This document shows, piece after piece, positions 30,555-60,040 of a stretch of 64,000 nucleotides of DNA. Position numbers and translations under genes: made by a program. A model generated the notes under the pieces. The model made no database searches, was not told the origin of the DNA, and saw only the letters and a list, made by a program, of their open reading frames with translations. Location of the stretch: contig JAFLVO010000006.1 in assembly GCA_022508245.1 (NCBI GenBank), positions 847 through 64,846 on the forward strand. Direction: 5' to 3'. Each line of letters starts with the position of its first letter. Within the stretch, counting starts at the first letter, position 1. Source of the DNA: Clostridiales bacterium. GTDB lineage: Bacteria > Bacillota > Clostridia > Christensenellales > Borkfalkiaceae.

Positions 30555-30725
30555 TATTAACGGCACAAACAAAAACCACGCTTTTTGTTTGTGCACCCAA
30601 TTTGCGGATGCTTCCGCTTCAGTGTAAGAGAATGCCCGCAATTTAATGTTTGTTTGCTCTTAACTATTGCGGGCAGAGAAACATAGTTTCTAAAAATCAC
30701 GAAAATTTACTTGCACAGAATAGCA
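30555..30725 (-). repeat. Rep-A structured intergenic repeat, copy A (inverted relative to the other copies)
   Basis: The reverse complement aligns with the copies at 35291 and 59758: ttttcgtgattttt-agaaactatgtttct-ctgcccgcaatagttaagagcaaaca...attgcgggcattc...ccgcaaattgggtgc-acaaacaaaaa gcgtgg tttttgtttgtgcc. Confidence 0.8.
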
Positions 30726-30752
30726 AGAAAATTTTGTGAATGAGGAGTTTAT

Positions 30753-30980
30753 ATGGCACAGAAAGTTAATAACGGTGCAAAGAAGCCCAATATTTTTGTA
30801 AGAATGGGCAGAAAACTTAAAGAAACATTTTCGGAGCTTAAAAGAGTAACCTGGCCCACGTTCCCTAAGGTTGTGCGCGGAACGTGCGTAGTTTTGGTTG
30901 TTGTTCTTGCGTTCCTTGTCGTAGTTACGGGAATCAACTACGGACTTCAGGCACTTTTAAACCTTGTTACGGGAGCGTAA
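30753..30980 (+). CDS. secE: preprotein translocase subunit SecE
   Basis: ELKRVTWPT motif plus a single C-terminal TM. Position rpmG-secE-nusG. Confidence 0.9.
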   Translation: MAQKVNNGAKKPNIFVRMGRKLKETFSELKRVTWPTFPKVVRGTCVVLVVVLAFLVVVTGINYGLQALLNLVTGA

Positions 30981-30983
30981 ACT

Positions 30984-31529
30984 ATGGCAACTATGGTAGC
31001 AGATCCCGAAAATCCCTGCTGGTATATCCTTCACACCTATTCGGGCTACGAATCGATGGTAAAGGACAGCTTGGAGAGGCTTATTGAAAACAACAATTTG
31101 CAGGACATGATTTTCGACGTCAAAATCCCCATGGAGCAGACGATTGAAGAGAAAAACGGCAAGCGCAAGGTGGTAGAGCGCAAGCTGTTGCCCTGCTATG
31201 TGTTCATAAAAATGATATATTCCAACCAGCTTTGGTATTGGGTAACCAATACGAGAGGCGTTACGGGCTTTGTAGGTCCTCAAGGCAGACCTATCCCCAT
31301 GAAAGAGGCGGAAATCCGCAAGATGCGCCTTGAAGATTACGTAATTGACGCAGACTTCAAGGTGGGCGACAAGGTAAGCGTAATTTCGGGCCCCTTGGAG
31401 GGCTTTGAAGGTGTCGTAACCGAATTAAATGACGCAGCGCAGAAGGCAAAGGTAAATATTCAGATGTTCGGCAGAAATACCGACGTCGAGGTAGAATATA
31501 TTCAGGTTAAAAAAATAGACGACAATTAA
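30984..31529 (+). CDS. nusG: transcription termination/antitermination factor NusG
   Basis: WYILHTYSGYE NGN start and a C-terminal KOW (GDKVSVISGPLEGFEGVV). Confidence 0.95.
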   Translation: MATMVADPENPCWYILHTYSGYESMVKDSLERLIENNNLQDMIFDVKIPMEQTIEEKNGKRKVVERKLLPCYVFIKMIYSNQLWYWVTNTRGVTGFVGPQGRPIPMKEAEIRKMRLEDYVIDADFKVGDKVSVISGPLEGFEGVVTELNDAAQKAKVNIQMFGRNTDVEVEYIQVKKIDDN

Positions 31530-31615
31530 ACCGCTTGGTTTTTTGTATATCGTGGGAGAACGTGTTAAATCTTTTTCATGGCACGTTTGCTTGACCACTC
31601 GGAGGTAATAAATTT

Positions 31616-32041
31616 ATGGCAAAGAAGATTACTGCGGTAGTTAAACTGCAACTTCCCGCCGGTAAAGCCACACCCGCACCCCCCGTAGGTTCTACGCTGG
31701 GTCCTCACGGAATTAACATTCCCGGCTTTACTAAGGAATTCAACGCAAAGACGGCTGCACAGGCAGGACTTATCATCCCCTGCGTTGTAACCATCTATCA
31801 GGACAGAAGTTTTACGTTTGTGCTTAAAACTCCGCCTACACCCGTGCTCATTAAAAAGGCGCTCGGCTTGGAGACTGCAAGCTCCCGTCCCAACAGGGAT
31901 AAGGTGGGCAAGCTGACCAAGGCTCAGGTAGAGGAAATAGCAAAGACGAAGATGCCCGACCTTAACTGCACAGACCTTGATGCAGCAAAGAGCATGGTCA
32001 AAGGAACAGCGCGCTCTATGGGCGTTACGGTAGAGGAGTAA
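31616..32041 (+). CDS. rplK: 50S ribosomal protein L11
   Basis: [25 protein letters not shown]. Confidence 0.97.
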
Positions 32042-32053
32042 GGAGGGCGTATT

Positions 32054-32743
32054 ATGAAATTGGCTAAAAAATATGCAGAGAGCGTAAAGTTATACGACCG
32101 CTCCAAAACCTACGAACTTAACGATGCCATTAAGACCGTTTTAGATACGGCAAAGGCTAAATTCGACGAAACAATCGAGCTTCACGTTCGCTTGGGCGTA
32201 GACCCCCGTCAGGCAGACCAGCAGGTCCGTGGCGTTTTAGTCCTTCCCAACGGTACGGGTAAAACCAAGAGAGTTCTCGTTATCGCAAAGGGCGACAAGG
32301 CGGACGCGGCAGAGGCTGCAGGCGCAGATTACGTCGGCGCAGAAGAGACCATTCAGCGCATCCAGAAGGACAACTGGTTCGACTTCGACGTTATGATTAC
32401 CACTCCCGATATGATGGGTATGGTAGGTAGAATAGGTAGAATCCTCGGACCCAAGGGCTTGATGCCCAACCCCAAGTCGGGCACAGTTACCATGGACGTA
32501 GCGAAGGCCGTCAAGGAAGTTAAGGCAGGTAAAGTTGAATACCGTCTTGACAAAACGGCAATTATCCACGTTCCCATCGGCAAGAAGTCCTTCGGCGTTG
32601 ATAAGATTGCAGAAAACTTCAACGCACTTATGGACGCAATCGTAAAGGCTAAACCCGCAGCCGCAAAGGGACAGTACATTAAGTCAGTTACGCTTTGCGC
32701 AACTATGGGTCCCGGTGTGAAGGTTACCTACAACAAAGGCTAA
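32054..32743 (+). CDS. rplA: 50S ribosomal protein L1
   Basis: [24 protein letters not shown]. Confidence 0.97.
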
Positions 32744-32749
32744 ATGTTA

Positions 32750-32930
32750 AAACGCATATAAACTGCGCAATACTTCGTTGTCTTTGCGTTTTTGCTTCGG
32801 TCATTTACTTCATTGTAAACTCCCTCGCAAAATCCGCAGACGCCTCGTCTTGCTTGTTTCTCTACGTTTTAGACGTGTGGAGAGAGTGTTGCTCGTTTCT
32901 CTGCGTTTTTGAAATTGTGCACTTAAAATC
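32750..32930 (+). repeat. Rep-B intergenic palindromic repeat, copy R3, with 2 right-arm sub-repeats
   Basis: gcgcaatacttcgttg...gcgtttttgcttcggtcatttac-ttcatt-gtaaactccctcgcaaaatccgc...cgtcttgcttgtttctctacgttttagac / gttgctcgtttctctgcgttttt. Confidence 0.8.
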
Positions 32931-32932
32931 GG

Positions 32933-32961
32933 TTGACAAACCCTTTCGGTGCAGTTATAAT
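32933..32961 (+). promoter_or_regulatory. consensus sigma-A promoter of rplJL
   Basis: TTGACA (32933-32938), 17 nt, TATAAT (32956-32961). Confidence 0.7.
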
Positions 32962-32967
32962 TCAATC

Positions 32968-33110
32968 GTAAATAAATTTTGCTACCCAAGACGGCGGGTG
33001 CGTTTTCGCTCAATATCCCACCCAGGTGCCAGGTTTGAATTTAGTAATTTAAAATAATTATGTAAATTCCTTGTGCCTTTTTGGGTGCAAGGAATTCTTA
33101 ATTTTATAAG
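32968..33110 (+). ncRNA. candidate L10 (rplJ) leader / attenuator
   Basis: Contains cccaagacggcgggtg, reminiscent of Firmicute L10 leaders. Has a 13-bp attenuator hairpin aattccttgtgcc/ggtgcaaggaatt (33065-33096), followed by cttaatttt just upstream of the rplJ RBS. Not verified against Rfam. Confidence 0.5.
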
Positions 33111-33121
33111 GAGGTAAAGAT

Positions 33122-33646
33122 TTGTCAGCAAATTTAGAAGCTAAAAAAGTAGTCGTAGCAGAAATTACGGAAAAGATTAAAGCTTCCAAGTCGGTTGTGC
33201 TTGTTGATTACAACAAATTGACCGTTAAAGAAGTTTCAGAGCTCCGCAATAAGTGCAAGCAGGCGAACTGCGAATACAAGGTCTATAAAAACACGCTTGT
33301 AAGAAAGGCTTTGAACGATTTGGGCTACAATCAGTTCGATAAAGACCTCAACGGCCCTACGGCAGTTACTTTCGGTGCAGACGAAACGGCAGCCGCAAAA
33401 GTTATGGTCGAAGCCGCTAAAACGTACGACCAGAAAATTCTTTTAAAGAGCGCGTTCGTAGATAACGGCTACGTGGACAAGGCGGGCGTCAAGGCGCTTG
33501 CCGCAATCCCTGCAAGGGAAGAGCTCGTTGCAAAGATGCTCGGCTCGCTCAATTCGCCCGCAACCAATCTCGCGGGAGTACTCAACAACGTTGTATCTGC
33601 GCTCGTACGTGTGCTTAACGCAGTTGCAACAAAGGAACAGGCTTAA
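33122..33646 (+). CDS. rplJ: 50S ribosomal protein L10 (TTG start)
   Basis: MSANLEAKKVVVAEITEKIKASKSVVLVDY. RBS aaggaggt. Confidence 0.95.
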   Translation: MSANLEAKKVVVAEITEKIKASKSVVLVDYNKLTVKEVSELRNKCKQANCEYKVYKNTLVRKALNDLGYNQFDKDLNGPTAVTFGADETAAAKVMVEAAKTYDQKILLKSAFVDNGYVDKAGVKALAAIPAREELVAKMLGSLNSPATNLAGVLNNVVSALVRVLNAVATKEQA

Positions 33647-33720
33647 AGCCCAAAAGGCGGGCGCAGCCTTATAGCGCAAAACAAATTTAAAAATAAAAAT
33701 AATTTAGGAGAATAAATAAA

Positions 33721-34101
33721 ATGGCAGATATCAAAAAGTTAATCGAAGAAATCAAAGGTTTGACCTTACTTGAAACCAGTGAGCTTGTAAAGGCTCTTGA
33801 AGAAGAATTCGGCGTAAGCGCAGCAGCTCCCGTAGCAGTTGCAGCAGCTCCCGCAGCAGGCGCAGCAGCTCCCGCAGCAGCAGTTGAAGAGAAGACCGAG
33901 TTCAACGTAGTTCTTAAAGACGCAGGCGCAAAGAAAATCGACGTTATCAAAGTTGTTCGTGCATTCACCGGCCTTGGACTTGTTGAGGCTAAGCAGGCAG
34001 TTGAGAAGGGCGGCGTGCTCAAAGAGAACGTTGCAAAGGAAGAGGCAGAGAAGATTGCCGCAGACCTCAAGGCAGCAGGCGCAACCGTCGTTTTAGAGTA
34101 A
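33721..34101 (+). CDS. rplL: 50S ribosomal protein L7/L12
   Basis: Ala-rich hinge plus [19 protein letters not shown]. Confidence 0.97.
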
Positions 34102-34116
34102 TTTTTGAAAAAAATC

Positions 34117-34149
34117 AAATTCCCGCAGGTCCCTGCGGGAATTTTTTGT
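34117..34149 (+). terminator. intrinsic terminator after rplL
   Basis: aaattcccgcagg tc cctgcgggaattt, followed by tttt. Confidence 0.85.
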
Positions 34150-34329
34150 TTGCGATAAGTAGTTTGCATTTTTTCGGATAAGTATGAAATTGCTCGCGCG
34201 CACCGCAAGCGTTTCCATATCTTATATTTTTTCGTTAACGCACAAAAACGCTTGACTTGGTAAAAATAACAAAGTAAAATAGTTTAGAGTATAGTTAAAC
34301 TGGAATAAAAGTCTTTTACGGATATAGAT

Positions 34330-35268
34330 ATGAAATTTGGAAAGATTAAAAAATTATTAACCTGTATAGCTCTTTCGGCGACCGTTGCGTGTATGGCGGC
34401 AACGGCGGCGGGTTGTTCTGCCGAAACCGACCATCCCGAGGTTAGCATAACCTATGAATTCAACGGTAAGGCGTACGTTATCGAGTACACCTTGTACAGA
34501 AATATGTACCCCAACACGGTGCGTCATTTCCTTGAGCTTACCGAAAACGGTTTTTATAACAATACCGTGATTCACGATATGGAGAGTAACGACTGGTTCG
34601 GCGGAGCGTACGAATACAACAAGGACGAGTATGCAAGCCTCACCGAGAACGGCAACGATGCTATGAAGGAGTACTACGAGACGTACAGCAAAGAGCAGGC
34701 ATATTACGACCTTTTCAATGCCGGCAAGCTTTCGACCACCGTCTACTCAAATATTGCGTATAATGGTCAGACCCAGATTTTAGACGCGAAGTACAAAATG
34801 GCTACGCTCATAGGCGAGTTTTCGGACAATCAGCATACCATAGAGAAGGGTGCGCTTACTGCCGAATACGGCTGCCTTAAAATGTATTACAGCAGCAAGA
34901 AGACTAAGGGCAAGGTATACGTTACCCCTGCAAGCGGCGGACATGTTTACAGCGATTATAGCAAAAACTGTGCAACCTATGTGTTCGGTATGCAGGTGGG
35001 AACGACTTCGACCTACGTGGCAAGCCAATACTGCGTATTTGCAAAAATCAAAAACGACGACGCATTGGAGAAATTTGTTGAAGCCGTTGAAGATTACAAC
35101 AACGACACATACGGCACCACCGTTTCCGAGCACTACACCCAGCCCGTAGTCGATGTTGACAAGATGGAGTCTTTCTCCGAAGAGGCTGCAGACAAGGGCA
35201 TTGAAGAGACCTTCCGTTCGCCCAAGACGGCAATCATTATAAAGAACGTTAAAATAGTAAAATATTGA
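34330..35268 (+). CDS. cyclophilin-type peptidyl-prolyl isomerase lipoprotein
   Basis: Lipobox AAGC (Cys29). Cyclophilin pattern YPNTVRHFLELTENGFYNNTVIHD. Promoter TTGACT-17-TAAAAT upstream (~34252-34280). Confidence 0.75.
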   Translation: MKFGKIKKLLTCIALSATVACMAATAAGCSAETDHPEVSITYEFNGKAYVIEYTLYRNMYPNTVRHFLELTENGFYNNTVIHDMESNDWFGGAYEYNKDEYASLTENGNDAMKEYYETYSKEQAYYDLFNAGKLSTTVYSNIAYNGQTQILDAKYKMATLIGEFSDNQHTIEKGALTAEYGCLKMYYSSKKTKGKVYVTPASGGHVYSDYSKNCATYVFGMQVGTTSTYVASQYCVFAKIKNDDALEKFVEAVEDYNNDTYGTTVSEHYTQPVVDVDKMESFSEEAADKGIEETFRSPKTAIIIKNVKIVKY

Positions 35269-35290
35269 TTATAGGTTCACAAAAATTCCT

Positions 35291-35470
35291 TACTATTCAG
35301 CGTAAAGAATTTTTCGTTATTTGAGAAACTATGTTTCTCTGCCCGCAATATTTAAGGGTAAACAATTATAGAATTTCTGGCATTCACTTCCGGTGTGCCG
35401 TAGGTATACGCAAATTGTGTGCGTGCCCCAAAAACATGGTTTTGGGGCACGCCGTTGATTATTTTAAAAG
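35291..35470 (+). repeat. Rep-A structured intergenic repeat, copy B (full length)
   Basis: ctattcagcg...ttttcgttattt-gagaaactatgtttctc-tgcccgcaatatttaagggtaaaca...ggcattc...atacgcaaattgtgtgcgt-gccccaaaa acatgg ttttggggcac-gccgt. Confidence 0.85.
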
Positions 35471-35537
35471 TTCACAAGTAGCTGCTAACTTTTGCTGCTG
35501 CAAGGCAGTAAAATACCACCACGTAAAATGAATATTT

Positions 35538-35568
35538 CGCGCCCGTCAAGGGGTGCGTTTTTGTTTTT
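35538..35568 (+). terminator. intrinsic terminator
   Basis: cgcgccc gtcaag gggtgcg, followed by tttttgttttt. Confidence 0.65.
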
Positions 35569-35634
35569 ACAGATTTTTACTTGATTTTTTACCGCTTTTA
35601 TTATAAAATAAAACAAAAGCATAAGAGGTGGAAT

Positions 35635-36288
35635 ATGAATTTACTTTTTACGTTTCCCGAGCCTGTGTCGTTTTTAAATAACGTCCCTTGGTGGGGATGG
35701 GCTTTAGCAGGCGGCATCTTACTGCTTATTATCATAATTATAATTGCGGCGGCGGTAAGCAAATCCAAAAAGAAGAAAAAGGCAAAGGAGAGCGCCTCTG
35801 TGCCCGTACAGGAGCAAGCTGTGGAAGACCGTCCTATTTCAGAACCTGTTGCAGAGGAAGTTCCCGAAGAACAGCCTCAACCCGTAGCGGAGGAAATTTC
35901 CGAGGAGCCCACACAAGAGGAAGCTCCCCAAGAGGAGAAAAAACCTGCAAACAAGACGCAAACGAAGAAGCAGCCCGTCGTAACTCCCGTTAAAAAGACG
36001 GCTACTGCTAAAAAGACCACAACGACCTCGACCGCAAAAAAACCCGCAACTCCCGCTAAAAAGACTGCGTCGGCAGCTGCCGACAAGCCTGCCTCCAAGG
36101 TTTATCATATTTCCAAGCGCAAGGAAGACAACAGATGGCAGATAAAGGCGGAGGGCGGCGCAAAGGCGATTAAGCTTTTCAATACCCAGAAAGAGGCTAT
36201 CGAATACTGCAAGACGCTTGCGGGCAATCAGGAAGCGCGCATTATGATTCACAAAGAGGACGGCTCTTTCAGAAAGCTTACATACTAA
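35635..36288 (+). CDS. membrane-anchored protein with a K/T/A/P-rich linker and a C-terminal DUF2188-like domain
   Basis: Start moved to ATG 35635 (RBS agaggtgg). N-terminal TM (WGWALAGGILLLIIIIIIAAAV). C-terminus YHISKRKEDNRWQIKAEGGAKAIKLFNTQKEAIEYCKTLA resembles DUF2188. Confidence 0.65.
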   Translation: MNLLFTFPEPVSFLNNVPWWGWALAGGILLLIIIIIIAAAVSKSKKKKKAKESASVPVQEQAVEDRPISEPVAEEVPEEQPQPVAEEISEEPTQEEAPQEEKKPANKTQTKKQPVVTPVKKTATAKKTTTTSTAKKPATPAKKTASAAADKPASKVYHISKRKEDNRWQIKAEGGAKAIKLFNTQKEAIEYCKTLAGNQEARIMIHKEDGSFRKLTY

Positions 36289-36416: not shown

Positions 36417-37493
36417 ATGACAAAGATTGATATTTTTTCGGGATTTTTGGGCGCAGGTAAGACCACGCTTATAAAAAAACTCATTAAAGAAGCGTACGCG
36501 GGCGAAAACCTTGTTCTCATTGAAAACGAATTCGGCGAGATAGGCGTTGACGGCGGATTTCTTGCGGAGGCGGGAATAAAGATTAACGAATTAAACTCGG
36601 GCTGTATCTGCTGTTCGCTCGTCGGCGACTTTTCGAAGGCGCTTCAAAAGGTTCAAAAAGAGTACAACCCCGACAGAATTTTAATTGAGCCCTCTGGCGT
36701 GGGCAAGCTATCCGACGTTATCCGCGCGGTTGAGAGCGCACAGCTTGAAAACTGCACTGTAAATTCATACACGGCGGTAGTGGACGCAGCCAAGTGCAAG
36801 ATGTATATGAAGAACTTCGGAGAGTTTTTCAACGATCAGATTGAAACCGCCGCTTGCATAGTGTTCAGCCATACCGACGTTGCCTCGGCGGAAAAGCTTG
36901 CTACAGCAGTTGAACTTGTAAAGGCGCACAACGACCATGCAACTATTGTTACCACCGCATGGAACGAGCTTGACGGCAGACAAATTCTTGCGGCTATGGA
37001 GCATTCGCGCACCCTTGCGGATGAGTTGAAAGAGCTTGAAGAGGAGCACGAACATCACCACGACCACGAGGGACATTGCTGTCACCACGACCACGAACAC
37101 GAACATCATCATGACCATGAAGGACATTGCTGTCACCACGACCACGAACACCATCATGACCATGACGGACATTGTTGCCACCATGACCACGAACATGAAC
37201 ATGAACATCATCACGCCGACGAGGTGTTCACAAGCTGGGGCGTAGAGACGGGCAGAAAGTTTACAAAAGAGCAGATAAACAGTGCGCTTTCCAAGCTTTC
37301 GGACGCAGTAACCTACGGCACGGTTCTCCGCGCAAAGGGTATCGTTGCGGGAGAGGACGGCAAGTGGATTCACTTTGACTACATCCCCGGCGAAATCGAC
37401 GTGCGCGACGGTGGAGCGGCGTACACCGGCAGACTGTGCGTAATAGGCAGTAAAATAGACGGCGAAGAGCTCGCCGAATTATTCGGAGTATAA
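36417..37493 (+). CDS. COG0523 (CobW/ZigA/YciC-like) metallochaperone GTPase with a His/Cys-rich insert
   Basis: P-loop GFLGAGKTT, CXCC motif GCICCS, ENEFGE. His-rich block with three HHDHEGHCC-type repeats (third copy HHDHDGHCC), aa 211-267. CobW C-terminal domain. Confidence 0.85.
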   Translation: MTKIDIFSGFLGAGKTTLIKKLIKEAYAGENLVLIENEFGEIGVDGGFLAEAGIKINELNSGCICCSLVGDFSKALQKVQKEYNPDRILIEPSGVGKLSDVIRAVESAQLENCTVNSYTAVVDAAKCKMYMKNFGEFFNDQIETAACIVFSHTDVASAEKLATAVELVKAHNDHATIVTTAWNELDGRQILAAMEHSRTLADELKELEEEHEHHHDHEGHCCHHDHEHEHHHDHEGHCCHHDHEHHHDHDGHCCHHDHEHEHEHHHADEVFTSWGVETGRKFTKEQINSALSKLSDAVTYGTVLRAKGIVAGEDGKWIHFDYIPGEIDVRDGGAAYTGRLCVIGSKIDGEELAELFGV

Positions 37494-38441: not shown

Positions 38442-38454
38442 AACCGCTCACAAA

Positions 38455-38550
38455 AATTAAAAGCTATTCTGCGCTTTCAATTTTTCGTGATTTTGGGAAC
38501 TAAGTTCCCCTCGTCGAGATATTTAAGGGCAAACAATAATAAAATCATAG
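38455..38550 (+). repeat. Rep-A structured intergenic repeat, copy D (5' half only)
   Basis: aagctattctgcgctttcaatttttcgtgatttt-gggaactaagttccc-...atatttaagggcaaacaataa. The right half is replaced by a terminator hairpin. Confidence 0.7.
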
Positions 38551-38612
38551 AGAGCGTTGCGATTTTGCAACGCTCTCTACATTTTTTAAGCCCCCGAATT
38601 TCGGGGGCTCTT
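38549..38612. terminator. pair of hairpins between convergent genes
   Basis: agagagcgttgc gatttt gcaacgctctct (12 bp), followed by acatttttt. Then agcccccgaa/ttcgggggct. Confidence 0.7.
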
Positions 38613-38623
38613 AATTATTTATT

Positions 38624-40678
38624 TTAGGATTTTGAATCGGCAATTACCTTTTCGGCAATTTGAGGGGGAACTTCCTCGTAGCGCAGGAACTCGGTAGAGA
38701 ACTTGCCCTGTCCGCGCGTCATGCCTCTTAAGTCGGTAGCGTACTTGGCAATTTCGGAGAGGGGAACTTCGGCAATAACCGTGGTTATATCTCCGTCGGT
38801 CACGCTCTCGTTAATTCTGCCTCTGCGCTTGGAGATATCTCCCATAACCGCGCCGAGGTACTCGCCGTTTACTGCAGTCTTTAATTTCATAACGGGTTCC
38901 AAAAGTATGGGCTTTGCGTTTTTAATTCCCTCTTTGAATGCGAGCGCCGCTGCCGCCTTGAACGCCATTTCCGAGGAGTCTACGTCGTGATAGCTTCCGT
39001 CGTAAAGCACTGCTCTAACGCCTATTACGGGATAGTCGGCAAGAACTCCGCGCGAAAGACATTCTCTGAGTCCCTTTTCGACTGCGGGTATATACTGCTT
39101 GGGAACTGCGCCGCCTACAACCTCGTCGCCGAATTCGAAATCTGCCTCGCAAGGCTCGAAGCGCACCTTGCAGTGTCCGTACTGGCCGTGTCCGCCCGAC
39201 TGTTTCTTGTGTTTGCCCTCGGCGGTTGCCGTTGCGCGAATAGTCTCGCGGTAGGGGATTTTAGGCTCTGATAAGGTTACTTCCGTGCCGTAGCGCTGTT
39301 TGAGCTTTTTGGAGAGCATTTCCAAATGAATTTCGCCCTGACCGCTTATAATAAGCTCGCCCGTCTCGGCTCTCTTTTCAACCGAGAAGGTGTAGTCCTC
39401 CTCGCGCATCTTGTTAAAGCCTGCAAATATCTTGTCCTCGTCGCCCTTGTTCACGGCATTAACCGCAAGCGAAAGGCAGGGGCGGGGGAAGCGGATAGGG
39501 TCGAAGCGGATATTTGTTCCGAGTGCGCAGAGCGTGTGGTTGGTGTCTGTCGAAGTGAGCTTGTTCACGCCGCCGATATCGCCCGCCGAAAGCTCGGTTA
39601 CAAGCTCGGTCTTTTTGCCCTTAATCATAAATATCTGACCTATTCTCTCTTCAACCCCCGTGTTGGAGTTGAGTACGGTCATACCCGTTTTAAGCTTGCC
39701 GCGGTAAACTTTAATATAGTTTAGCTTGCCCGCAAAGGGGTCGTACACCGTCTTGAAAACCTGCGCGGCGAAGGGCGCTTCATCGTCGCATGAAACGCTT
39801 ACAAGCTCGTCGGCGTCAATGTCGGTGGCAAGGCTGTTGATTCTCTCGTTTGCGGTGGGCATATATCTTACGATTTCATCCAAAAGGTTTATAACACCGC
39901 GGTTCTGAAGCGCGCTGCCCGCCATTACCGGAATAACGCTTCCCGTAGCGATACCGCGCCTTATGCCGTGCACGGCTTCTTCCTTCGTCAGCTTGCCCTC
40001 TTCGAAATACTTGTCAAGGAGTCGGTCGTCATTCTCCGCCGCAGTCTCCATAAGCCGGAACTGCATTGCGTTCATTTGCTCGACATACTCCTTCGGTACG
40101 GGAATTTCCTGCGGTCCCTGCGTAGAGAATTTATACGCCCTTTCCTGAATGGCGTTGACGTAACCCGTCATCTTTTCGCCGTCAATCATGGGAATCTGTA
40201 TGGGCGCAAGCTTGCCCGCATACTTTTCTTCGAGTGCGGCAAGCGTTCCCGCATAGTCTGCGTTGGCTTTGTCCATGCCGTTTATAAATATAACGAGCGG
40301 TTTCTGAAGTTTCAAACAGTAATCGACTACGCTCTCCGCGCCGATGGGCAGAACGCCGTTCGCACCGAGTACGAGTATAGCCGCACCGCATGCGGAAAGC
40401 CCTTCGTGTCTCTCGCCCTCGAAATCGTAGAAGCCGGGAAGGTCTAAAAGGTTTATCTTTATTCCCTTCCAGGTAAGATATGCAACGGAGGTATACACCG
40501 AAATTTTCTTACTCTTTTCAAGGTCGTCAAAGTCCATAACGGTGGTTCCGTCCTCGACCTTGCCCATTCTGTCGGTTACACCGCCGTTGTATAGCATAGC
40601 CTCGCAAAGGGTGGTCTTGCCTTCGCCGCTGTGTCCAATGACTGCAATGTTTCTTATTTCTTTTGCTGTAATACTCAT
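38624..40678 (-). CDS. EF-G paralog (EF-G2-like translational GTPase, 684 aa)
   Basis: Start moved to ATG 40678 (MSITAKEIRNIAVIGHSGEGKTT). G3 is DLPGFYDF and G4 is NGMD. EF-G domains II-V are recognisable. The 85 codons upstream in the ORF track are AT-rich promoter region. Confidence 0.85.
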   Translation of the reverse strand: MSITAKEIRNIAVIGHSGEGKTTLCEAMLYNGGVTDRMGKVEDGTTVMDFDDLEKSKKISVYTSVAYLTWKGIKINLLDLPGFYDFEGERHEGLSACGAAILVLGANGVLPIGAESVVDYCLKLQKPLVIFINGMDKANADYAGTLAALEEKYAGKLAPIQIPMIDGEKMTGYVNAIQERAYKFSTQGPQEIPVPKEYVEQMNAMQFRLMETAAENDDRLLDKYFEEGKLTKEEAVHGIRRGIATGSVIPVMAGSALQNRGVINLLDEIVRYMPTANERINSLATDIDADELVSVSCDDEAPFAAQVFKTVYDPFAGKLNYIKVYRGKLKTGMTVLNSNTGVEERIGQIFMIKGKKTELVTELSAGDIGGVNKLTSTDTNHTLCALGTNIRFDPIRFPRPCLSLAVNAVNKGDEDKIFAGFNKMREEDYTFSVEKRAETGELIISGQGEIHLEMLSKKLKQRYGTEVTLSEPKIPYRETIRATATAEGKHKKQSGGHGQYGHCKVRFEPCEADFEFGDEVVGGAVPKQYIPAVEKGLRECLSRGVLADYPVIGVRAVLYDGSYHDVDSSEMAFKAAAALAFKEGIKNAKPILLEPVMKLKTAVNGEYLGAVMGDISKRRGRINESVTDGDITTVIAEVPLSEIAKYATDLRGMTRGQGKFSTEFLRYEEVPPQIAEKVIADSKS

Positions 40679-40862
40679 AAAATGCCCCTTATCCCGCCTT
40701 AGCGGCGGTTCATTATACCTATTATAATATATATAATCAATTATTTCAAGGGGGTAATAAAAAATAATGCCCGCCAAATGGGCTAAGAATAAGGCAATTT
40801 GCGGTCGACTTATATAATATTCAAAAATTATAAAAAAATGCCAAATAATTAGTCGTTTTCGT

Positions 40863-40891
40863 TTGACAATTCCTATTGACATCTTTATAAT
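40863..40891 (+). promoter_or_regulatory. consensus sigma-A promoter ~300 nt upstream of rpsJ
   Basis: TTGACA (40863-40868), 17 nt, TATAAT (40886-40891). Confidence 0.65.
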
Positions 40892-40897
40892 GAATAA

Positions 40898-41195
40898 GCA
40901 CGCGTGAGAGTGTGTGCTTGGGTAGATGCGCAAAGTTACTGAAATTTTACGGTAAAAATCCGCCGTAACAGATAATTTGTGCGGACAAATGTGAGGGCAG
41001 GACCCTTGCGACTAACCGCGATTCGTTTAAACGAAACGACTAACTCGTTAGTTCGTTTGAAAAACGAAGTGACTAACTCGTTTTTCGCTTAAAAACGCCT
41101 ATGCGCTGTTTGGCGCATAGTAAAAAAACGAAGCGCGACACACACGGATAAGTTGACGCGAATAAAAAAGTTAGTATAAATTAAGGAGTTACAAA
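40898..41195 (+). ncRNA. long hairpin-rich 5' leader of the S10 operon (candidate cis-regulatory RNA)
   Basis: Successive hairpins: aagcac/gtgctt (40896-40919), ttacgg/ccgtaa (40947-40968), atttgt/acaaat (40975-40990), three GACTAAC-hairpin units, and ctatgcgc/gcgcatag (41099-41120). Confidence 0.45.
41008..41097 (+). repeat. three tandem ~28-33-nt units, each GACTAAC plus a 7-bp A/T-rich hairpin
   Basis: GACTAAC at 41010, 41038 and 41071. Hairpins ttcgttt/aaacgaa (41022-41035), ttcgttt gaa aaacgaa (41052-41068) and cgttttt cgctt aaaaacg (41079-41097). Confidence 0.8.
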
Positions 41196-46274: not shown

Positions 46275-46420
46275 TATACATCGTTATGCTTTGTTGCACT
46301 CCGCGCCGCCTTGGTAAGCCGTTTCCCAAAAGGGAACCCTCGGCTTCGGTACGACATTTACCTCAATGTAAACTCCCTGCGGTCGGTGCTCGTGCGCCTC
46401 GCCTAACTCGTATCTATGAA
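46275..46420 (+). repeat. Rep-B intergenic palindromic repeat, copy R4 (with the 35-nt nested hairpin module)
   Basis: gttgcactccgcgccgccttgg-[taagccgtttcccaaaagggaaccctcggcttcgg]-tacgacatttac-ctcaat-gtaaactccctgcggtcggtgctcgtgcgcctcg. Confidence 0.85.
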
Positions 46421-49234: not shown

Positions 49235-49335
49235 ATCACGCAATACTTTGTTGCACTCTGCGCCGCCTTGGTCACGTACATCTGTGTACGCTCCCTGCGG
49301 TCGGTACTCGTGCGCCTCGTCTTGCGCGCGACTGA
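49235..49335 (+). repeat. Rep-B intergenic palindromic repeat, copy R5 (cgtac/gtacg hairpin variant)
   Basis: cacgcaatactttgttgcactctgcgccgccttggtcacgtac-atctgt-gtacgctccctgcggtcggtactcgtgcgcctcgtcttgcgcg. Confidence 0.85.
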
Positions 49336-50946: not shown

Positions 50947-51080
50947 CACGCAATACTGCGTTGTGCTGTGGCAACTCTCGGTAAGCCGTTTCCCTAAAGG
51001 GAACCCTCGGCTTCGGTGCGACGTTTACTTCATTGTAAACTCCCTCGGGTTTTCCTCGCACGCCTTATCTTGCTCGTATC
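50947..51080 (+). repeat. Rep-B intergenic palindromic repeat, copy R6 (with the nested hairpin module)
   Basis: cacgcaatactgcgttgtgctgtggcaactctcgg-[taagccgtttccctaaagggaaccctcggcttcgg]-tgcgacgtttac-ttcatt-gtaaactccctcgggttttcctcgcacgccttatcttgctcg. Confidence 0.88.
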
Positions 51081-53914: not shown

Positions 53915-53944
53915 GTTGAAATATTAACTCTTTAAGGGAAATAT

Positions 53945-54235: not shown

Positions 54236-54245
54236 AAGGAGTTCT

Positions 54246-54467: not shown

Positions 54468-54533
54468 TTACGAAATAATTAGTCACAAGCAAATTCCGGC
54501 GCATAAAGCGCGTAAAGAAATTAGGAGAAAGTT

Positions 54534-54650: not shown

Positions 54651-54654
54651 AACG

Positions 54655-54890
54655 CGTATCTACGGCGCACTGCTTTGTCGCGCTCCGCTTTTCTCGGGTC
54701 ACGTACGTCTTTGTACGCTCCCCTTGAAAATGCTCGCGCTCCTAGCATTGCTTGTATCTCCGCATTTTAAACGGTTTAGACTTGCGGGTGTGAGTGTGCC
54801 GCTTGCTTCTCTGTGTTTTAAACTTGCGTAAGTGAGTGCATTGCTTGTATCTTCGCGTTTTAACGCGGTTTTAACTTGCGATTTTTTAAA
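54655..54890 (+). repeat. Rep-B intergenic palindromic repeat, copy R7, plus three tandem right-arm sub-repeats
   Basis: ggcgcactgctttgtcgcgctccgcttttctcgggtcacgtac-gtcttt-gtacgctccccttgaaaatgctcg. Then units at 54745-54795, 54796-54837 and 54838-54880 (gcattgcttgtatct..cg.ttttaa..cttgcg..gtgagt). Confidence 0.85.
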
Positions 54891-55005
54891 CTTTAAAAAC
54901 AATTTCGGATAAACTTATCGCCTCATTCCAAATTTCCGGGCGGTCGGTTTGTTTCGGTTCACATACAAAATACCATTTTAAATTTTTAACGGAGGAATCA
55001 AATTT

Positions 55006-55380
55006 ATGGCACGTATTGCCGGCGTAGATTTACCCAGAGAGAAAAGGGTTGAAATAGGCTTGACTTATATCTACGGAATAGGTTTAAAGACTTCCCAAAA
55101 AATTCTCGCTGCTACGGGCGTTGACCCCGACACGAGAGTTAAGGACCTCGATGAAACCACAGTATCCAAATTGAGAGAATACATTGACCACAATTTAAGG
55201 GTGGAGGGTGAGCTTCGCAGTGAAGTATCGCTCAACATCAAAAGACTTATGGAAATAGGCTGCTATCGCGGAATCCGTCACAGAAAGGGACTTCCCGTGC
55301 GCGGTCAGTCCACCAAGACCAACGCGAGGACAAGAAAAGGACCTCGCCGTACGGTAGCCAAGAAGAAGGGCGCTAAGTAA
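55006..55380 (+). CDS. rpsM: 30S ribosomal protein S13
   Basis: [26 protein letters not shown]. Confidence 0.98.
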
Positions 55381-55391
55381 GGAGGACTATA

Positions 55392-55796
55392 ATGGCACAG
55401 GCTAAAAAACAGACTAAAACAGTAACAAGAAAGAGAAGAGAACTCAAAAAGGTTGACAGAGGTCAGGTGCATATTCAGTCCTCTTTCAATAACACTCTCG
55501 TAACCGTAACCGATTTGCAGGGCAATGCTATAAGCTGGTCGTCCGCAGGCAGCCTCGGGTTCAAGGGTTCGAGAAAAGGTACTCCCTTTGCAGCGCAGCA
55601 GGCAACCGAAACGGCTGTAAACGCAGCTAAAGCTCACGGGCTTCGCTCGGTTGAGGTTTACGTAAAAGGTCCCGGCGCGGGCAGAGAGTCGGCTATTCGT
55701 GCAATAGGCGCGTGCGAGGTTGAGATTACGCTCATTTCCGACGTATCCCCCATCCCTCACAACGGATGCAGACCGCCTAAACGCCGCAGAGTATAA
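55392..55796 (+). CDS. rpsK: 30S ribosomal protein S11
   Basis: [18 protein letters not shown]. Confidence 0.98.
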
Positions 55797-55810
55797 GGAG
55801 GTAAGTAAAT

Positions 55811-56434
55811 ATGGCAACTTATAGAGAGGCAAAATGCCGCCTTTGCAGAAGAGAGGGCGGAAAGCTGTTTTTGAAAGGCGAAAAATGTTACAACGGCAAA
55901 TGCCCGTTTGAAAAGAGACCTATGGCTCCCGGTCAGCACGGACTTGCAAGAAAGAAGGTATCCGAATACGGTCAGCAGCTTCGTGAAAAGCAGAAGGTCA
56001 AGAGAATTTACGGCGTGCAGGAAGGTCAGTTCCGTTCCTACTACGAGAAAGCCGACAGAATGAAAGGCATCACCGGTGAAAATATGCTTTCACTGTTGGA
56101 GCGCAGGCTTGACAATGTCATCTACCGTATGGGTATAGGCGTAAGCCGTGCTCAGGCAAGACAGCTTGTAAACCACGGTCATTTCCTTGTAAACGGCAGA
56201 AAGGTAAATATTCCTTCATACATTATAAAGGTCGGCGATATAGTCACCGTCAAAGAAAGCAAAAATTCCAACAAATTTTTCGAAGAGCTTAAAGCAAGCA
56301 AGGGCGGAAATTTGCCCAAGTGGCTTGAATTCGACAACGGAAAGTTAGAGGGAAAGATATTGGCATTACCCGAAAGGGACGATATAGACAGTCAGATTTC
56401 CGAGCATATGATTGTCGAGCTGTACTCCAAGTAA
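55811..56434 (+). CDS. rpsD: 30S ribosomal protein S4 (N-terminal Cys4 zinc-finger form)
   Basis: [36 protein letters not shown], plus an S4 RNA-binding domain. Confidence 0.97.
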
Positions 56435-56458
56435 TAATCGGAAAAAGGAGGAAGTTAT

Positions 56459-57412
56459 ATGATCGAAATGGATATGCCCAAAATAGAGGTTATGGAGAGC
56501 GACGACCGCGCGTATGCGAAGGTTATCGTAGATCCGCTTGAAAAGGGCTTCGGTCTTACAATAGGCAACTGCCTTAGAAGAATACTTCTGTCGGCACTCC
56601 CCGGAGCAGCGGCACAAGGCATCAGATTTTTAGACGGCACGGTAAAACACGAATTTTCTGCAATCGCAGGCGTCAAAGAGGACGTAACCGAAATCATTTT
56701 AAACTTAAAAACTCTTGCAATCAAGACTACGGTAACCGATAAGGATTACGAAAAGAAAGTTCGTCTCTACAAAGAAGGACCTTGCGAGGTCAAGGCAAAG
56801 GATATATCCGAGGACGCCGAGATTGAAATTATCAACGGCGACCAGCACATCTGCACGGTAGACGCGGGCGGTAAGATTGATATGGAAATAACAATCGGGC
56901 GCGGCAGGGGCTACAAGGGCGCAGACCACACCCGTACTGAGCTTCTCGACTATATCCCCATCGACAGTATCTACACACCCGTCAAAAAGGTAAACTACTC
57001 GGTAGAAAACACCCGCGTAGGTCAGAATACCGACTACGACAAACTCACGCTCGAAGTGTGGACGAACGGCGCGTTCAGCGCAAAAGAAATCGTCTCTTTG
57101 GCAGCAAAGATTATGCAGGACCATATTTCGCTCTTCGTCGATTTATCCGATTCCATAAGGGATATGGATATTCTCGTAAAGAACGAGGACGACAAGCAGG
57201 CGAAAATTCTTGCAATGGCAATCGAGGAAATGGACCTCTCGGTTCGTTCCTACAACTGTTTAAAGCGCGCAAATATTCACACTGTAGAAGATTTAACCAA
57301 GAAAACCGAAGACGAAATGCTTAAAGTGAGAAACCTCGGCAAGAAGTCGCTTGACGAAGTCATCTTAAAGCTCGAATCTTACGGACTTTCACTTTCAAAC
57401 AAGGAGGACTAA
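56459..57412 (+). CDS. rpoA: DNA-directed RNA polymerase subunit alpha
   Basis: [17 protein letters not shown]-terminal domain [20 protein letters not shown]. Confidence 0.97.
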
Positions 57413-57415
57413 CAT

Positions 57416-57922
57416 ATGCCCGGCAAATTGGGAAGAACGGCAGAAGAGAGAGTTGCGCTTTTGAGAAATCAGGCGTCCGAGCTTCTGTGGTACGGCAAAA
57501 TCACAACCACCAAGGCAAAGGCCAAAGAGCTTCAGCCCTACGTTGAAAAGATAATTACCAAAGCTATAAAGGTCTACGACGACAACGTTGAATTCGACGA
57601 AAAGACCACCGACAAAAAGGGTAAGGAAATCACGGTAAAGGGCGTTAAAGACAGCCCCCGCAAGCTTGCGGTACGCCGTGAGCTTATGAGCAAGCTTCGT
57701 GACTTACAGGAAGTTAAGCCCTTTACGGAAAGCAAAAAGGCGTTTAAGGCAAGAACTGAAGATATTCAGCATCCCCTTATGGAAAAGCTCTTCAACGAGA
57801 TTGCTCCCAAGTACGCACAGCGTGCCGAAGAGAAGGGTCAGGGCGGCGGCTACACCAGAATTTATACTCTTGGTGCACGTCGCGGCGACAACGCAGAAGA
57901 AGCCATAATCGAATTAGTTTAA
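57416..57922 (+). CDS. rplQ: 50S ribosomal protein L17 with a ~45-aa internal insertion
   Basis: KLGRTAEERVALLRNQASELL...GGGYTRIYTLGARRGDNAEEAIIELV. 168 aa. Confidence 0.95.
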   Translation: MPGKLGRTAEERVALLRNQASELLWYGKITTTKAKAKELQPYVEKIITKAIKVYDDNVEFDEKTTDKKGKEITVKGVKDSPRKLAVRRELMSKLRDLQEVKPFTESKKAFKARTEDIQHPLMEKLFNEIAPKYAQRAEEKGQGGGYTRIYTLGARRGDNAEEAIIELV

Positions 57923-57926
57923 ATTA

Positions 57927-57960
57927 TAAAACTGCGCACTTTTTAAGAGCGCAGTTTTGC
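57927..57960 (+). terminator. intrinsic terminator of the alpha operon
   Basis: aaaactgcgc actttttaaga gcgcagtttt. Confidence 0.8.
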
Positions 57961-58115
57961 CATTTTCAGAGAAAAATGCAGTCCCAAATTATCGCCACGG
58001 GGCGGCATTTTTGTTGCGTATTTTTAATTTTGTTAAATTATATTTATTCATAAAGTTGCGTTTAGTGAAAAGCGTGTGATATAATTATAAAAACATATTT
58101 ACAAGGAAGATTGCT

Positions 58116-59339
58116 ATGGCAGATCACGTTTATAACGTTATTCAAAGCGTAGGTAGCGACAACCGCGAAATTATATACAAAACCAAAATTACCGATTTCA
58201 AAAATGACAGCGTGCTCATTGTCGAACCCTCGCAACAGGCCATTATATACAAGGACGGCGCGGCGGAAGAACCCTTTACTGCGGGTAAACACGTACTGCC
58301 CACCAACAACATCTCAAAATTCCGCGCATTTTTCAAAAAACTGTTCAGCCGCAACAAGGAAGAACCTGCCGGTGTTCCCTTCGAATGTGACGTATTCTTT
58401 GTAAATATGTCAAATGACATCCAGGTAGTTTGGGGCACGCCCAGCCGCATAATGGTTAAGGATCCCCTTTACAACGAGCTTGTTGAAGTCGGTTCAAACG
58501 GCAGTGTAAATATACAGGTTGTGGACGCAATGCAGTTTGTCTTAAACTTGGTCGGACGTATGCCCGAGTACTCGGTTGAGCGCGTTGCCGCAACCGTGCG
58601 CGCGGATATTTTAACGGTGTTAAAGACCAATCTCGCAAGTGCAATAGTGGACAACAACGTCAGCCTTTTGGAAATCAATACAAAGCTTGAGGAGCTGTCT
58701 GACTCGGTAGCGGCAAAGCTCAACCAAAAGCTTGCCGATTACGGCTTGGGCGTCCGTCACTTCGATATCGTAGAGATTTCTGTCGACGACGCTTCGAAGG
58801 GCAGACTGTTGGTAAGACAGAACAAAATCAACGCAAGAAACGACGTCATACTCGATTCGGATGCGATGACGACCGCCGACTACAACCGCACGGTAAGAAT
58901 GGCGGAGGCAAAGGCAAAAGAGCGCGAGATGCAGGGCTATACATATCAGGACGAACAGTATTGGAAGACTCAGCAGAATATGGCGGCGGGCGGCGGCTAC
59001 ATGCACGGCGGATATCCCTATCCCAATATGTACCCGGGTGCAGTTCCTCCCGTTCCCCCCATTAATCCCTACTACGGACAGCAGCCCATGTACGGCGGAG
59101 CGGCTTCTTTCTGCCCCAACTGCCGTGCGCCCATGCCCTACGGTGCGGCGTTCTGCCAGATGTGCGGCTATCGCGCACAGCCCGTTCAGCCCGTGCAGCA
59201 GCCCCCGCAACCTCAACAGACTTACGGTTTCTCGCAGGCGGCGCAGTCTGGAACCTGCCCCAAGTGCGGATATCCCGTAACGCCCCGCACGGAGAAATGC
59301 CCCAGTTGCAACTTGGATTTGACCAAAGATATTAAATAA
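58116..59339 (+). CDS. SPFH/band-7-like protein (YdjI / COG4260-like) with a P/Q-rich linker and two C-terminal zinc ribbons
   Basis: The N-terminal ~280 aa resemble YdjI-type SPFH. C-terminus has CPNC..CQMC and CPKC..CPSC. Extended -10 promoter TGaTATAAT at ~58076-58084. Confidence 0.7.
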   Translation: MADHVYNVIQSVGSDNREIIYKTKITDFKNDSVLIVEPSQQAIIYKDGAAEEPFTAGKHVLPTNNISKFRAFFKKLFSRNKEEPAGVPFECDVFFVNMSNDIQVVWGTPSRIMVKDPLYNELVEVGSNGSVNIQVVDAMQFVLNLVGRMPEYSVERVAATVRADILTVLKTNLASAIVDNNVSLLEINTKLEELSDSVAAKLNQKLADYGLGVRHFDIVEISVDDASKGRLLVRQNKINARNDVILDSDAMTTADYNRTVRMAEAKAKEREMQGYTYQDEQYWKTQQNMAAGGGYMHGGYPYPNMYPGAVPPVPPINPYYGQQPMYGGAASFCPNCRAPMPYGAAFCQMCGYRAQPVQPVQQPPQPQQTYGFSQAAQSGTCPKCGYPVTPRTEKCPSCNLDLTKDIK

Positions 59340-59364
59340 TTACCCTTTCGTGCGCAAAAACTAA

Positions 59365-59739
59365 ATGAAACAGATTCGCGAAGTACGCGTAAAAGACTTA
59401 ATAATTTATTTTTGGTTGCAGATAGGTGTCTTGGCAGTATTCTGGACAGCGTTCGGCGTAATTGTCGGGCTTAAGCTGCTTCCAGTGAGCATTTGGATAG
59501 AGCTGCTTGTGATAATCGCCTTAACCTATATGCCGTTCAGGTGTTTTCTCATCGGCTGTGTGCTTATGTACAAGGCATACGCGCCTATGTCGATAAGACA
59601 GGAGTGCAGATTTCATCCCACCTGCTCGACGTATATGATTCTTTCAATCAAAAAATACGGCATAATTGTCGGCGTAACCAAGGGAATTCGCAGAATTATA
59701 CGCTGCAAGCCCCCCAACGGCGGCGAAGATTGGCCGTAA
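59365..59739 (+). CDS. yidD: YidD-family membrane protein insertion efficiency factor with an N-terminal 2-TM extension
   Basis: CRFHPTCSTYMILSIKKYGIIVGVTKGIRRIIRCKPPNGGEDWP is the YidD signature, preceded by ~60 hydrophobic residues. Confidence 0.8.
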   Translation: MKQIREVRVKDLIIYFWLQIGVLAVFWTAFGVIVGLKLLPVSIWIELLVIIALTYMPFRCFLIGCVLMYKAYAPMSIRQECRFHPTCSTYMILSIKKYGIIVGVTKGIRRIIRCKPPNGGEDWP

Positions 59740-59757
59740 AAAAGTTCACAAATATTT

Positions 59758-59940
59758 AATTCTATTCTGCGAATTAAATATTTCGTGAGGCTTGGGAAAC
59801 AATGTTTCCTTTGCCGCAATTTTTAAGGGCAAACGAACATAGAATTACGGCAATTCCTTTCTTTTAAGCGCAGGTATGCGCAAATTGAGTGCGCATCCCC
59901 AAAAGCGTGATTTTGGGGCGCGCCATAAAGCGTTTGAAAA
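59758..59940 (+). repeat. Rep-A structured intergenic repeat, copy C1 (full length)
   Basis: ctattctgcg...atttcgtgagg-cttgggaaacaatgtttcc-tttgccgcaatttttaagggcaaacgaaca...aattacggcaattcc...atgcgcaaattgagtgcgcat-ccccaaaa gcgtga ttttgggg-cgcgcc. Confidence 0.85.
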
Positions 59941-59952
59941 GTTTAAAAAATT

Positions 59953-60040
59953 AAAAGCAATTCTGCGCAAGCATACGCAAATTGGGTGCGAAAGAAAAAA
60001 GCGTGGTTTTTCCTTTCGCCGTAAAGCGTTTTAAAATACT
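59953..60040 (+). repeat. Rep-A copy C2 (internally deleted, in tandem with C1)
   Basis: aagcaattctgcgcaag-catacgcaaattgggtgcg-aaagaaaaaa gcgtgg tttttcctttcgcc-gtaaagcg. Lacks the first two hairpins. Confidence 0.8.

Follow-up and report, generated by a model that had tools for sequence, protein, structure and literature searches.

What kind of sequence recurs between the genes of the 64,000-nucleotide (nt) stretch of Clostridiales DNA analyzed here (contig JAFLVO010000006.1, positions 847 to 64,846; hereafter, the window)? The element, named Rep-A, had been described by an earlier examination of the letters alone (the sequence-only reading) as a series of four hairpins in five copies or fragments, more like a functional RNA or a protein-recognition site than a simple terminator. 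Our results show that Rep-A is gained and lost in short spacers regardless of orientation, that its fold and the sequences of its loops, linker and bulge are under constraint, and indicate that it is neither a stand-alone small-RNA gene nor a terminator. Because it is, in addition, lineage-restricted, modular and non-coding, we assign it, with a probability of about 60%, to a new family within the class of structured dispersed repeats that includes REP/BIME, BOX and ERIC; Rep-A combines the remaining properties of such repeats as well, being multi-copy, intergenic, stably folded and polymorphic.

Reading of the sequence, a repeat finder and a five-way alignment detected the same ordered blocks at all five sites that had been listed, comprising three full copies (A, B and D), one left half (C) and one internally deleted tandem copy (E), with extents and scores given in Table 1. 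An nhmmer profile and a covariance model agreed with these sites (copy E, found by the repeat finder and nhmmer, was given no separate listing by the covariance model), and neither detected another copy in the 64-kb window. A motif from the right part of the element matched the window four times, against 0.00 matches expected from shuffles. The sites had been placed at or close to the right positions, and it was the left edge of the copies that had to be moved approximately 12 to 15 nt further left.

Copy A is antisense to the rpmG-secE operon and takes up the entire spacer from the rpmG stop codon to the secE ribosome-binding site; by single-sequence folding with DNA parameters, it forms the helices H0, H1, H2, H3a and H4 defined below (z = -7.4). 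Copies B, C and D start 8 nt past the stop codon of a gene for a cyclophilin-type peptidyl-prolyl isomerase (PPIase), 7 nt past that of the second of two CobW/COG0523-like genes and 6 nt past that of yidD, respectively. A real terminator is located downstream of copy B, and the RNA fold of copy D returned the five hairpins with a z of -4.8. Copy C contains the left module only, with H0, H1 and, of H2, the 5' arm and the loop, and is followed by two ordinary terminator hairpins and then by a tail-like CTTAATTATTTATTTT. Copy E lies head-to-tail with copy D; the 5' arm and loop of its H0 are joined at a GCG microhomology straight to H3a, which the AAATTGGGT linker, H4 and then the tail follow, with the 3' arm of H0, H1 and H2 deleted. 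The gene neighbors, i.e., L33/SecE, the PPIase, the COG0523 pair, and YidD followed by a 1007-amino-acid DUF5050 protein, are those that had been named. A compensated H1 variant, gggaac-taa-gttccc, was likewise found, although in the copy at 38.4 kb and not, as had been proposed, in the copy at 59.7 kb. Over the 5' arm and loop of H0, copies C and E are 96% identical (22 of 23 nt), far closer than other pairs of copies in the window, which suggests that the two partial copies may have a recent common ancestor or may have exchanged sequence.

The anatomy of the element was defined with an alignment of 38 full-length copies, 35 from other genomes and 3 from the window. The unit spans approximately 190 nt, in the order H0, H1, H2, a pyrimidine stretch, H3a, a single-stranded AAATTGRGT, H4 and an AT-rich tail. 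H0 is a 17-bp hairpin with the base TTCAC...GTGA(G), the 5' arm TTCACAAAAATTnnnn, a variable inner stem, the loop CTATTCTGCG and, four pairs above the base, a bulged C that is conserved family-wide; 95% of its 17 pairs are paired in the alignment, 12 are changed on both sides, and a mutual-information scan ranked H0 pairs highest. This hairpin had been overlooked, as the supposed prefix ctattctgcg..aatttttcgtga is its loop and 3' arm, and five hairpins were found instead of four. H1 reads GGGAAAC/GTTTCCC or AGGG(G)C/G(C)CCCT; H2 has 10 bp closing a conserved 24-nt loop, TTTAAGGGCAMACA..ATAATATAAT, and is followed by the pyrimidine stretch ATTCACCTC or ATTCCCTTCC; H3a has the consensus GCGNA-GNNA-TN'CGC; and H4 is a stem of 12 to 13 bp, usually with the loop GCGTGG, that precedes the tail CCGTTAATTATTTTAAAA. 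As proposed, the stems H1, H2 and H4 covary; H4, with changes on both sides at 10 of 13 pairs, is longer than had been drawn.

The hairpin previously drawn as H3 was not supported. It is built from the 3' arm of H3a together with the basal part of H4, and its outer pair is unpaired in 19 of the 38 copies, whereas in H3a the nucleotide concerned is paired in 37 of 38, in four pair types (alignment pair 134-141: CG in 20 copies, AU in 13, UA in 3, GC in 1 and other in 1). Since sequence changes follow H3a and H4 and break H3, we replaced H3 by H3a and a single-stranded linker. RNAalifold, single-sequence folding of copies D and A, and the mutual-information scan all returned the same five helices, and the loop and linker sequences were found to be more conserved than the stems.

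Across the 38 copies, 92.5% of pair positions are paired, compared to 73.9% with shuffled partners and 37 to 48% with partners slid by 1 to 3 columns, and 37 of 52 pairs are changed on both sides. These copies had been gathered by a motif in the right module; the loci L002 to L100 were retrieved by an exact motif over CGCAAATTGNGTGC and the H4 loop, so that invariance of those alignment columns is by construction. An independent set was therefore drawn by a covariance-model search of loci retrieved only via neighboring proteins (relatives of NusG, and contigs on which an identical L33 is encoded), which yielded 36 matches. Here, 91.8% of positions were paired, compared to 65.1% with shuffled partners, and 48 of 51 pairs were changed on both sides; alignment of this set was fitted to the covariance model, which favors pairing, but the slid controls gave 36 to 55%, and the effect is still large. 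In an unbiased set of copies, CAAAT(T/C)GRG was well conserved, and the H4 loop was not universal. Altogether, the five-helix fold of Rep-A is strongly supported.

Further pairings were considered and rejected. Pairing of the pyrimidine stretch after H2 with the 5' arm of H1 or with the H2 loop was too weak (cognate versus non-cognate, 3.9 versus 3.6 and 3.5 versus 3.3 bp), and a three-pair mini-hairpin (alignment columns 124-126 with 131-133) has one covarying pair but overlaps H3a. Small open reading frames (ORFs) within Rep-A are not conserved, and an ATG in the H1 loop is present in some copies only.

Both H0 (base TTC...GAG) and the right module are common to at least four subfamilies, which differ in the middle, some with extra nested hairpins. 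An additional hairpin module of approximately 60 to 75 nt lies between H2 and H3a in the copies at L002, L077, L086, L184 and L189 (e.g., L184:1669-1943), and in other subfamilies, a G-rich/C-rich hairpin (GGGGAGGG...CCCTCCCC) is nested in the H0 loop; Rep-A therefore accepts nested insertions at fixed points. At two loci, L080 and L098, a sequence of approximately 23 nt (CTCGCTTCTCCGCAGTTTCTCAC) is present on both sides of Rep-A and looks like a long direct repeat around the element. A similar short motif, GCWTTGCTTSTWTCTCYGCRTTTTAA, occurs three times in the window, near the rpmJ-rpsM and rplA-rplJ spacers.

When 185,579 species-representative genomes were scanned with the exact motif, all 99 loci obtained came from metagenome-assembled genomes of the Clostridia/Christensenellales/Borkfalkiaceae, labeled Christensenella, Christensenellaceae, Borkfalkia or Borkfalkiaceae and derived from the guts of rabbit, mouse, chicken, sheep and others, with up to approximately 20 loci in a single genome. 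Some loci are whole short contigs, and in about half of these, the copy lies no more than approximately 320 nt from an end of the contig, which is typical of assembly-breaking repeats. The sequence of the window is present on a contig of an ENA metagenome as well. Copies occupy short spacers or sit between a stop codon and the true terminator. Among 39 full-length matches compared with the flanking long ORFs, 9 were in sense (co-directional), 10 in antisense, 10 between convergent and 4 between divergent genes, the remaining 6 having no called gene on one side. The recurring neighbors are housekeeping genes only (hslU, recF, plsX, rnc, ffh, dnaA and smc/ftsY), and since the same families recur near copies, some positions are suggested to be common by descent across species.

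Gain and loss could be followed at the rpmG-secE site. Ten contigs encode exactly the L33 of the window, one of them (L182) being the window's own; among the other nine, the site is empty in two (L181 and L187), occupied in five, with junction and orientation unchanged (an extra module of approximately 75 nt being present in two of the five), and reduced in L186 to a deletion remnant that comprises the tail and 11 nt from the start of H4, and one contig ends just inside the copy. From empty, remnant and occupied sites among these relatives, it follows that the copy was gained once in the lineage, partially lost in at least one relative and remodeled in others. In approximately 70 more distant relatives (NusG 74 to 91% identical), the rpmG-secE spacer measures 3 to 148 nt and contains no Rep-A, and some of these relatives carry the element elsewhere in the same gene cluster, i.e., after nusG, between rplA and rplJ, or after rpsJ. 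The flanking genes differ by 23 to 40% at four-fold degenerate sites. Between copy A and its ortholog in L185, 30 of 49 pairs are unchanged, 14 are changed on both sides and still pair, 4 have become wobbles and 1 is broken, with a divergence of 34% in paired compared to 22% in unpaired columns. Copies within one genome are 61 to 73% identical (maximum, 91%) and still fold; tandem, half and deleted forms occur, the tandems being direct.

Three of the copies had also been thought to bracket, or to lie inside, the segment at 34 to 41 kb that interrupts the ribosomal gene cluster. Copies B and C lie inside the rplL-rpsJ segment and not at its edges, and copy A is 3.6 kb upstream. In relatives, the rplL-PPIase junction exists without any Rep-A, so that the break in synteny is not explained by the element.

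An intrinsic terminator was considered and set aside. H4 is followed by CCGTTAATTATTTT or CCGTTAATT... with no consistent U-tract, only copy B passes a lenient terminator scan, and ordinary terminators are located downstream of copies B and C; the earlier statements that U-tracts are lacking and that Rep-A is no simple terminator were thus essentially right. No known RNA family was matched either: at the gathering threshold, the only Rfam match in the whole window was an L10 leader, lenient scans of copies B, D and E gave chance-level matches only (best, 20 bits against thresholds of 32 to 172), and a tRNA/tmRNA scan of the window found none. No insertion sequence family was matched, many further copies were found, and the proposed pairings, apart from H3, were borne out. 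No matches were found in viral contigs, plasmids or phages, and a phage or plasmid origin was set aside; our literature search found no description of repeats in Christensenellales or Borkfalkia.

The complex conserved fold and the conserved loops might be expected of multi-copy genes for trans-acting small RNAs, or of a new class of structured RNA with its own promoter, and many left flanks are A/T-rich with TATA-like strings 5 to 8 nt upstream. However, no conserved promoter or -35/-10 arrangement was found, the 50 nt before TTCAC being merely A/T-rich, and in about nine copies, the left end instead abuts the ribosome-binding site of a gene on the opposite strand, as at secE in the window. 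There is no terminator after the element, its orientation with respect to flanking transcription is random, and half and deleted copies are common. The stems, moreover, are almost purely Watson-Crick, with 35 G.T and 28 A.C among 1,923 pair positions; these are no commoner than other mismatches and show no strand asymmetry. We therefore consider small-RNA genes very improbable, and the functional-RNA half of the earlier proposal, taken as a strand-specific RNA, unlikely.

The other half, a protein-recognition site, is the most attractive reading. Repeats of the REP/BIME, BOX and ERIC class are thought to persist through protein recognition of the folded element, and a comparable recognition is probable for Rep-A. 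The element would be transcribed only passively, within operons or 3' untranslated regions, and its fold and its conserved loops, linker and bulge would be kept for recognition by a hypothetical protein, with Rep-A folded as a single strand or a cruciform. Candidates for this putative protein are a recombinase or transposase that acts in trans and a DNA/RNA-binding protein of the host.

Rep-A has partial counterparts among known repeats. BOX elements of Streptococcus pneumoniae are modular boxA-boxB-boxC repeats, intergenic and present in tens of copies per genome; judged by description, without comparison of sequences, they resemble Rep-A in being non-coding, in having modules that occur alone, in tandem or deleted, in their stable predicted multi-hairpin folds and in encoding no transposase. 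Unlike BOX, with which no relationship of sequence is expected, Rep-A belongs to Christensenellales, its helices number five and are well defined, its bulge and loops are conserved, and its right module is conserved across many species-level genomes. REP/BIME sequences (REPINs), thought to be recognized as folded DNA by a dedicated protein (RAYT transposases), are similarly palindromic and extragenic, lie in short spacers or 3' untranslated regions in either orientation, and are long-lived and vertically inherited. However, REPs are single palindromes of 20 to 40 nt with a conserved GTAG head, usually in inverted pairs, whereas Rep-A is an ordered series of five different hairpins over approximately 190 nt, its copies are single or in direct tandem, and no RAYT-like gene adjoins any of them; membership of the REP/BIME-RAYT system was rejected on these grounds. 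ERIC/IRU (127 bp), Correia elements and MITEs (miniature transposable elements with inverted repeats) share with Rep-A a length of 100 to 200 bp, intergenic location, co-transcription with neighbors, polymorphic presence, and variants with internal deletions or insertions. They differ in forming essentially one long imperfect palindrome with terminal inverted repeats, accompanied in MITEs and Correia by target duplications, whereas Rep-A has unrelated ends (TTCAC... and ...CCGTTAATTATTTT) and no resolved duplication.

Several results weigh against the assignment to mobile dispersed repeats. The alignment of the 38 full copies and their flanks revealed no terminal inverted repeats, as (G)TTCACRAAA at the left end and GCGCCGTTAATTATTTT at the right end are not reverse complements. 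No target-site duplication could be read from three comparisons of occupied and empty sites (rpmG-secE and nusG-rplK spacers), the flanks being too diverged and A/T-rich to define one. No transposase recurred near Rep-A among 1,206 clustered ORFs of the 99 loci (approximately 650 kb). The low identity within genomes gives no sign of a recent burst, as an active mobile element usually shows, and the retained fold of old copies speaks for locus-by-locus selection and a host-level function rather than purely selfish spread. A weak bias of wobble pairs toward the transcribed strand, described below, hints at RNA-level constraint on transcribed hairpins. Finally, the recognizing protein is entirely hypothetical.

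The same searches bear on how Rep-A might have moved. No partner transposase was found in the 99 loci, where only housekeeping families recur, and a classical MITE was rejected, as the element lacks terminal inverted repeats and these loci showed no autonomous insertion sequence with ends like those of Rep-A. In the loci around copies, no left and right modules with a gene-sized insert between them were found; L007 contains a full copy and a solo right module 1.6 kb apart, flanking ftsY and an acetyltransferase and not a transposase. A non-autonomous derivative of a single-strand transposon (IS200/IS605 type, palindrome-associated) or of another family without terminal inverted repeats would make H0 and H4 subterminal hairpins for a transposase and TTCAC the target or cleavage sequence. 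The missing inverted repeats, the lack of an obvious duplication, hairpins at both ends, the extrahelical base in H0, TTCAC conserved at the left boundary and presence/absence polymorphism are consistent with such an origin, in line with the palindrome-associated elements of IS200/IS605. However, the A/T-rich H0, with its 17 bp and bulged C, and the G/C-based H4, with its loop GCGTGG, have no common sequence, unlike the similar left- and right-end hairpins of IS200/IS605, on which account the IS200/IS605-type end structure was rejected, and TTCAC belongs to the H0 stem and not to the flank. The strand of Rep-A with respect to local GC skew showed a mild excess of one orientation in strongly skewed loci (33:18, p = 0.049), which would fit such an origin, and no significant bias overall (58:46, p = 0.33). 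With no IS605-type RNA family matched in Rfam, no transposase in the 99 loci, and copies that are old and diverged, we regard this origin as improbable.

The main competitor of the dispersed-repeat reading is a cis-acting RNA that works in either orientation, in which transcribed hairpins would block exonucleases, direct processing or uncouple cistrons, and selection at each locus would keep the fold, as is known for some E. coli REP elements. Copies B and C between a stop codon and a true terminator, copies A, D and E between cistrons, the retained folds of old and diverged copies, and positions common across species beside hslU, recF, plsX, rnc, ffh and dnaA are all consistent with this. So is the distribution of wobbles with respect to inferred transcription in 79 distinct copies (G.T 39 and A.C 25 in sense; G.T 8 and A.C 17 in antisense; Fisher p = 0.018), although these copies are not independent and a transcription-linked C-to-T mutation bias could give the same pattern. 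However, a generic hairpin block needs no five specific hairpins, conserved bulge, loops and linker; G.U pairs are not enriched over other mismatches, unlike in typical structured RNAs; and the operon is unchanged in close relatives that lack the rpmG-secE copy. A cis-acting RNA is, in our view, unlikely, with the transposon derivative and small-RNA genes less likely still.

A bolder form of the recognition idea, which we hold as doubtful speculation, is that Rep-A may be the nucleic-acid half of an undescribed system, in which a dedicated protein would read the five-hairpin element in its folded single-stranded form through the bulged C of H0, the 24-nt H2 loop and the AAATTGRGT linker. That protein could be a new mobile-element enzyme without need of terminal inverted repeats or a host factor acting at highly transcribed operons. 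If so, every copy would be under selection, which would explain why more than 90% of stem positions pair in copies approximately 70% identical and in orthologs whose flanking genes have diverged by 23 to 40% at four-fold degenerate sites.

The window contains other features of note (Table 1). A second, unrelated repeat family, presumably the first element of the sequence-only reading, occupies spacers in the operons for ribosomal proteins; it has an approximate consensus of CGCAATACTTTGTTGCACTC..GGTCAYGTACATC..GTAAACTCCCTGCGG..CTCGTGCGCCTCGTCTTGC and no module in common with Rep-A. In the gene of the first CobW/COG0523 protein, three tandem repeats of approximately 45 to 51 nt encode a His/Asp/Glu-rich stretch (HEHHHDHEGHCCHHDHEH...), such stretches being typical of metal-chaperone GTPases, and the gene that follows has a weak CobW match and a DUF1980 C-terminal domain. 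A SecB-family export chaperone, a protein mainly known from Proteobacteria, is encoded just upstream of rpmG in what is a Clostridia genome by all neighbors, and its gene is kept at the same position in the relatives L181 to L190. The two members of a 58-nt inverted repeat, 76% complementary, lie in separate spacers, one upstream of the gene at 29211 and the other, which overlaps a promoter-like site, upstream of the PPIase gene; they may represent a regulatory or repeat sequence common to both. A second EF-G-like GTPase is encoded convergently with the COG0523 pair, and its longest ORF has 769 amino acids from a TTG; since it is called as 684 amino acids on the ENA contig L001, its true start is probably downstream. 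The L10 leader mentioned above is located upstream of rplJ, with a perfect consensus promoter ahead of it.

Table 1. Positions of Rep-A copies, their parts and other features in the window
Feature	Position	Strand	Details
Rep-A copy A	30549-30740	minus	full; nhmmer E=2.9e-57; covariance model 205 bits
Rep-A copy B	35276-35467	plus	full; nhmmer E=2.3e-58; covariance model 190 bits
H0 in copy B	35276-35319	plus	TTCACAAAAATTCCTTAC / loop TATTCAGC / GTAAAGAATTTTT(C)GTTA
H3a in copy B	35404-35417	plus	CGTA-GGTA-TACG; supersedes earlier H3
Single-stranded linker in copy B	35412-35420	plus	AAATTGTGT, after H3a
H4 in copy B	35421-35452	plus	13-bp stem GCGTGCCCCAAAA / loop ACATGG / TTTTGGGGCACGC, then tail CGTTGATTATTTTAAAA; listed by terminator scan
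Terminator downstream of copy B	35538-35557
Rep-A copy C	38448-38546	plus	left half; nhmmer model positions 2-101, E=6.9e-17; covariance model 89 bits over 38445-38625
Terminator hairpins after copy C	38548-38579, 38589-38609
Rep-A copy D	59745-59936	plus	full; nhmmer E=2.7e-56; covariance model 183 bits
Rep-A copy E	59946-60038	plus	internally deleted; repeat finder (families D15, D17), alignment, nhmmer 59960-60033 (model positions 119-192)
H0 5' arm and loop compared in copies C and E	38448-38474, 59946-59968
Short motif GCWTTGCTTSTWTCTCYGCRTTTTAA	54745-54770, 54838-54863, 32847-32872
Second repeat family	2086-2131, 3314-3402, 32804-32856, 46282-46404, 49239-49322, 50949-51076, 54666-54722
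Tandem repeats in first CobW/COG0523 gene	37044-37213		gene 36417-37493
SecB-family export chaperone	29785-30216		Pfam E = 1.4e-11
58-nt inverted repeat pair	29082-29139, 34199-34256		also 13188-13220
Promoter-like site	34252-34280
Second EF-G-like GTPase	38624-40933	minus
L10 leader (Rfam)	32967-33108		63.6 bits
Consensus promoter before L10 leader	32933-32961		TTGACA-17-TATAAT

Much is known about the dispersed structured repeats of Proteobacteria and streptococci, and, to our knowledge, such repeats have hardly been studied in uncultured Clostridia, which form a large share of animal gut communities. Rep-A is unusually elaborate, with five ordered helices and a conserved bulge, loops and linker, and unusually conserved across many species-level genomes, features that together suggest that a specific protein recognizes it. 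In its host group, the element breaks metagenome assemblies, and its covariance model could serve as a lineage marker and an aid to annotation. Located inside ribosomal-protein operons, Rep-A may also affect their expression.

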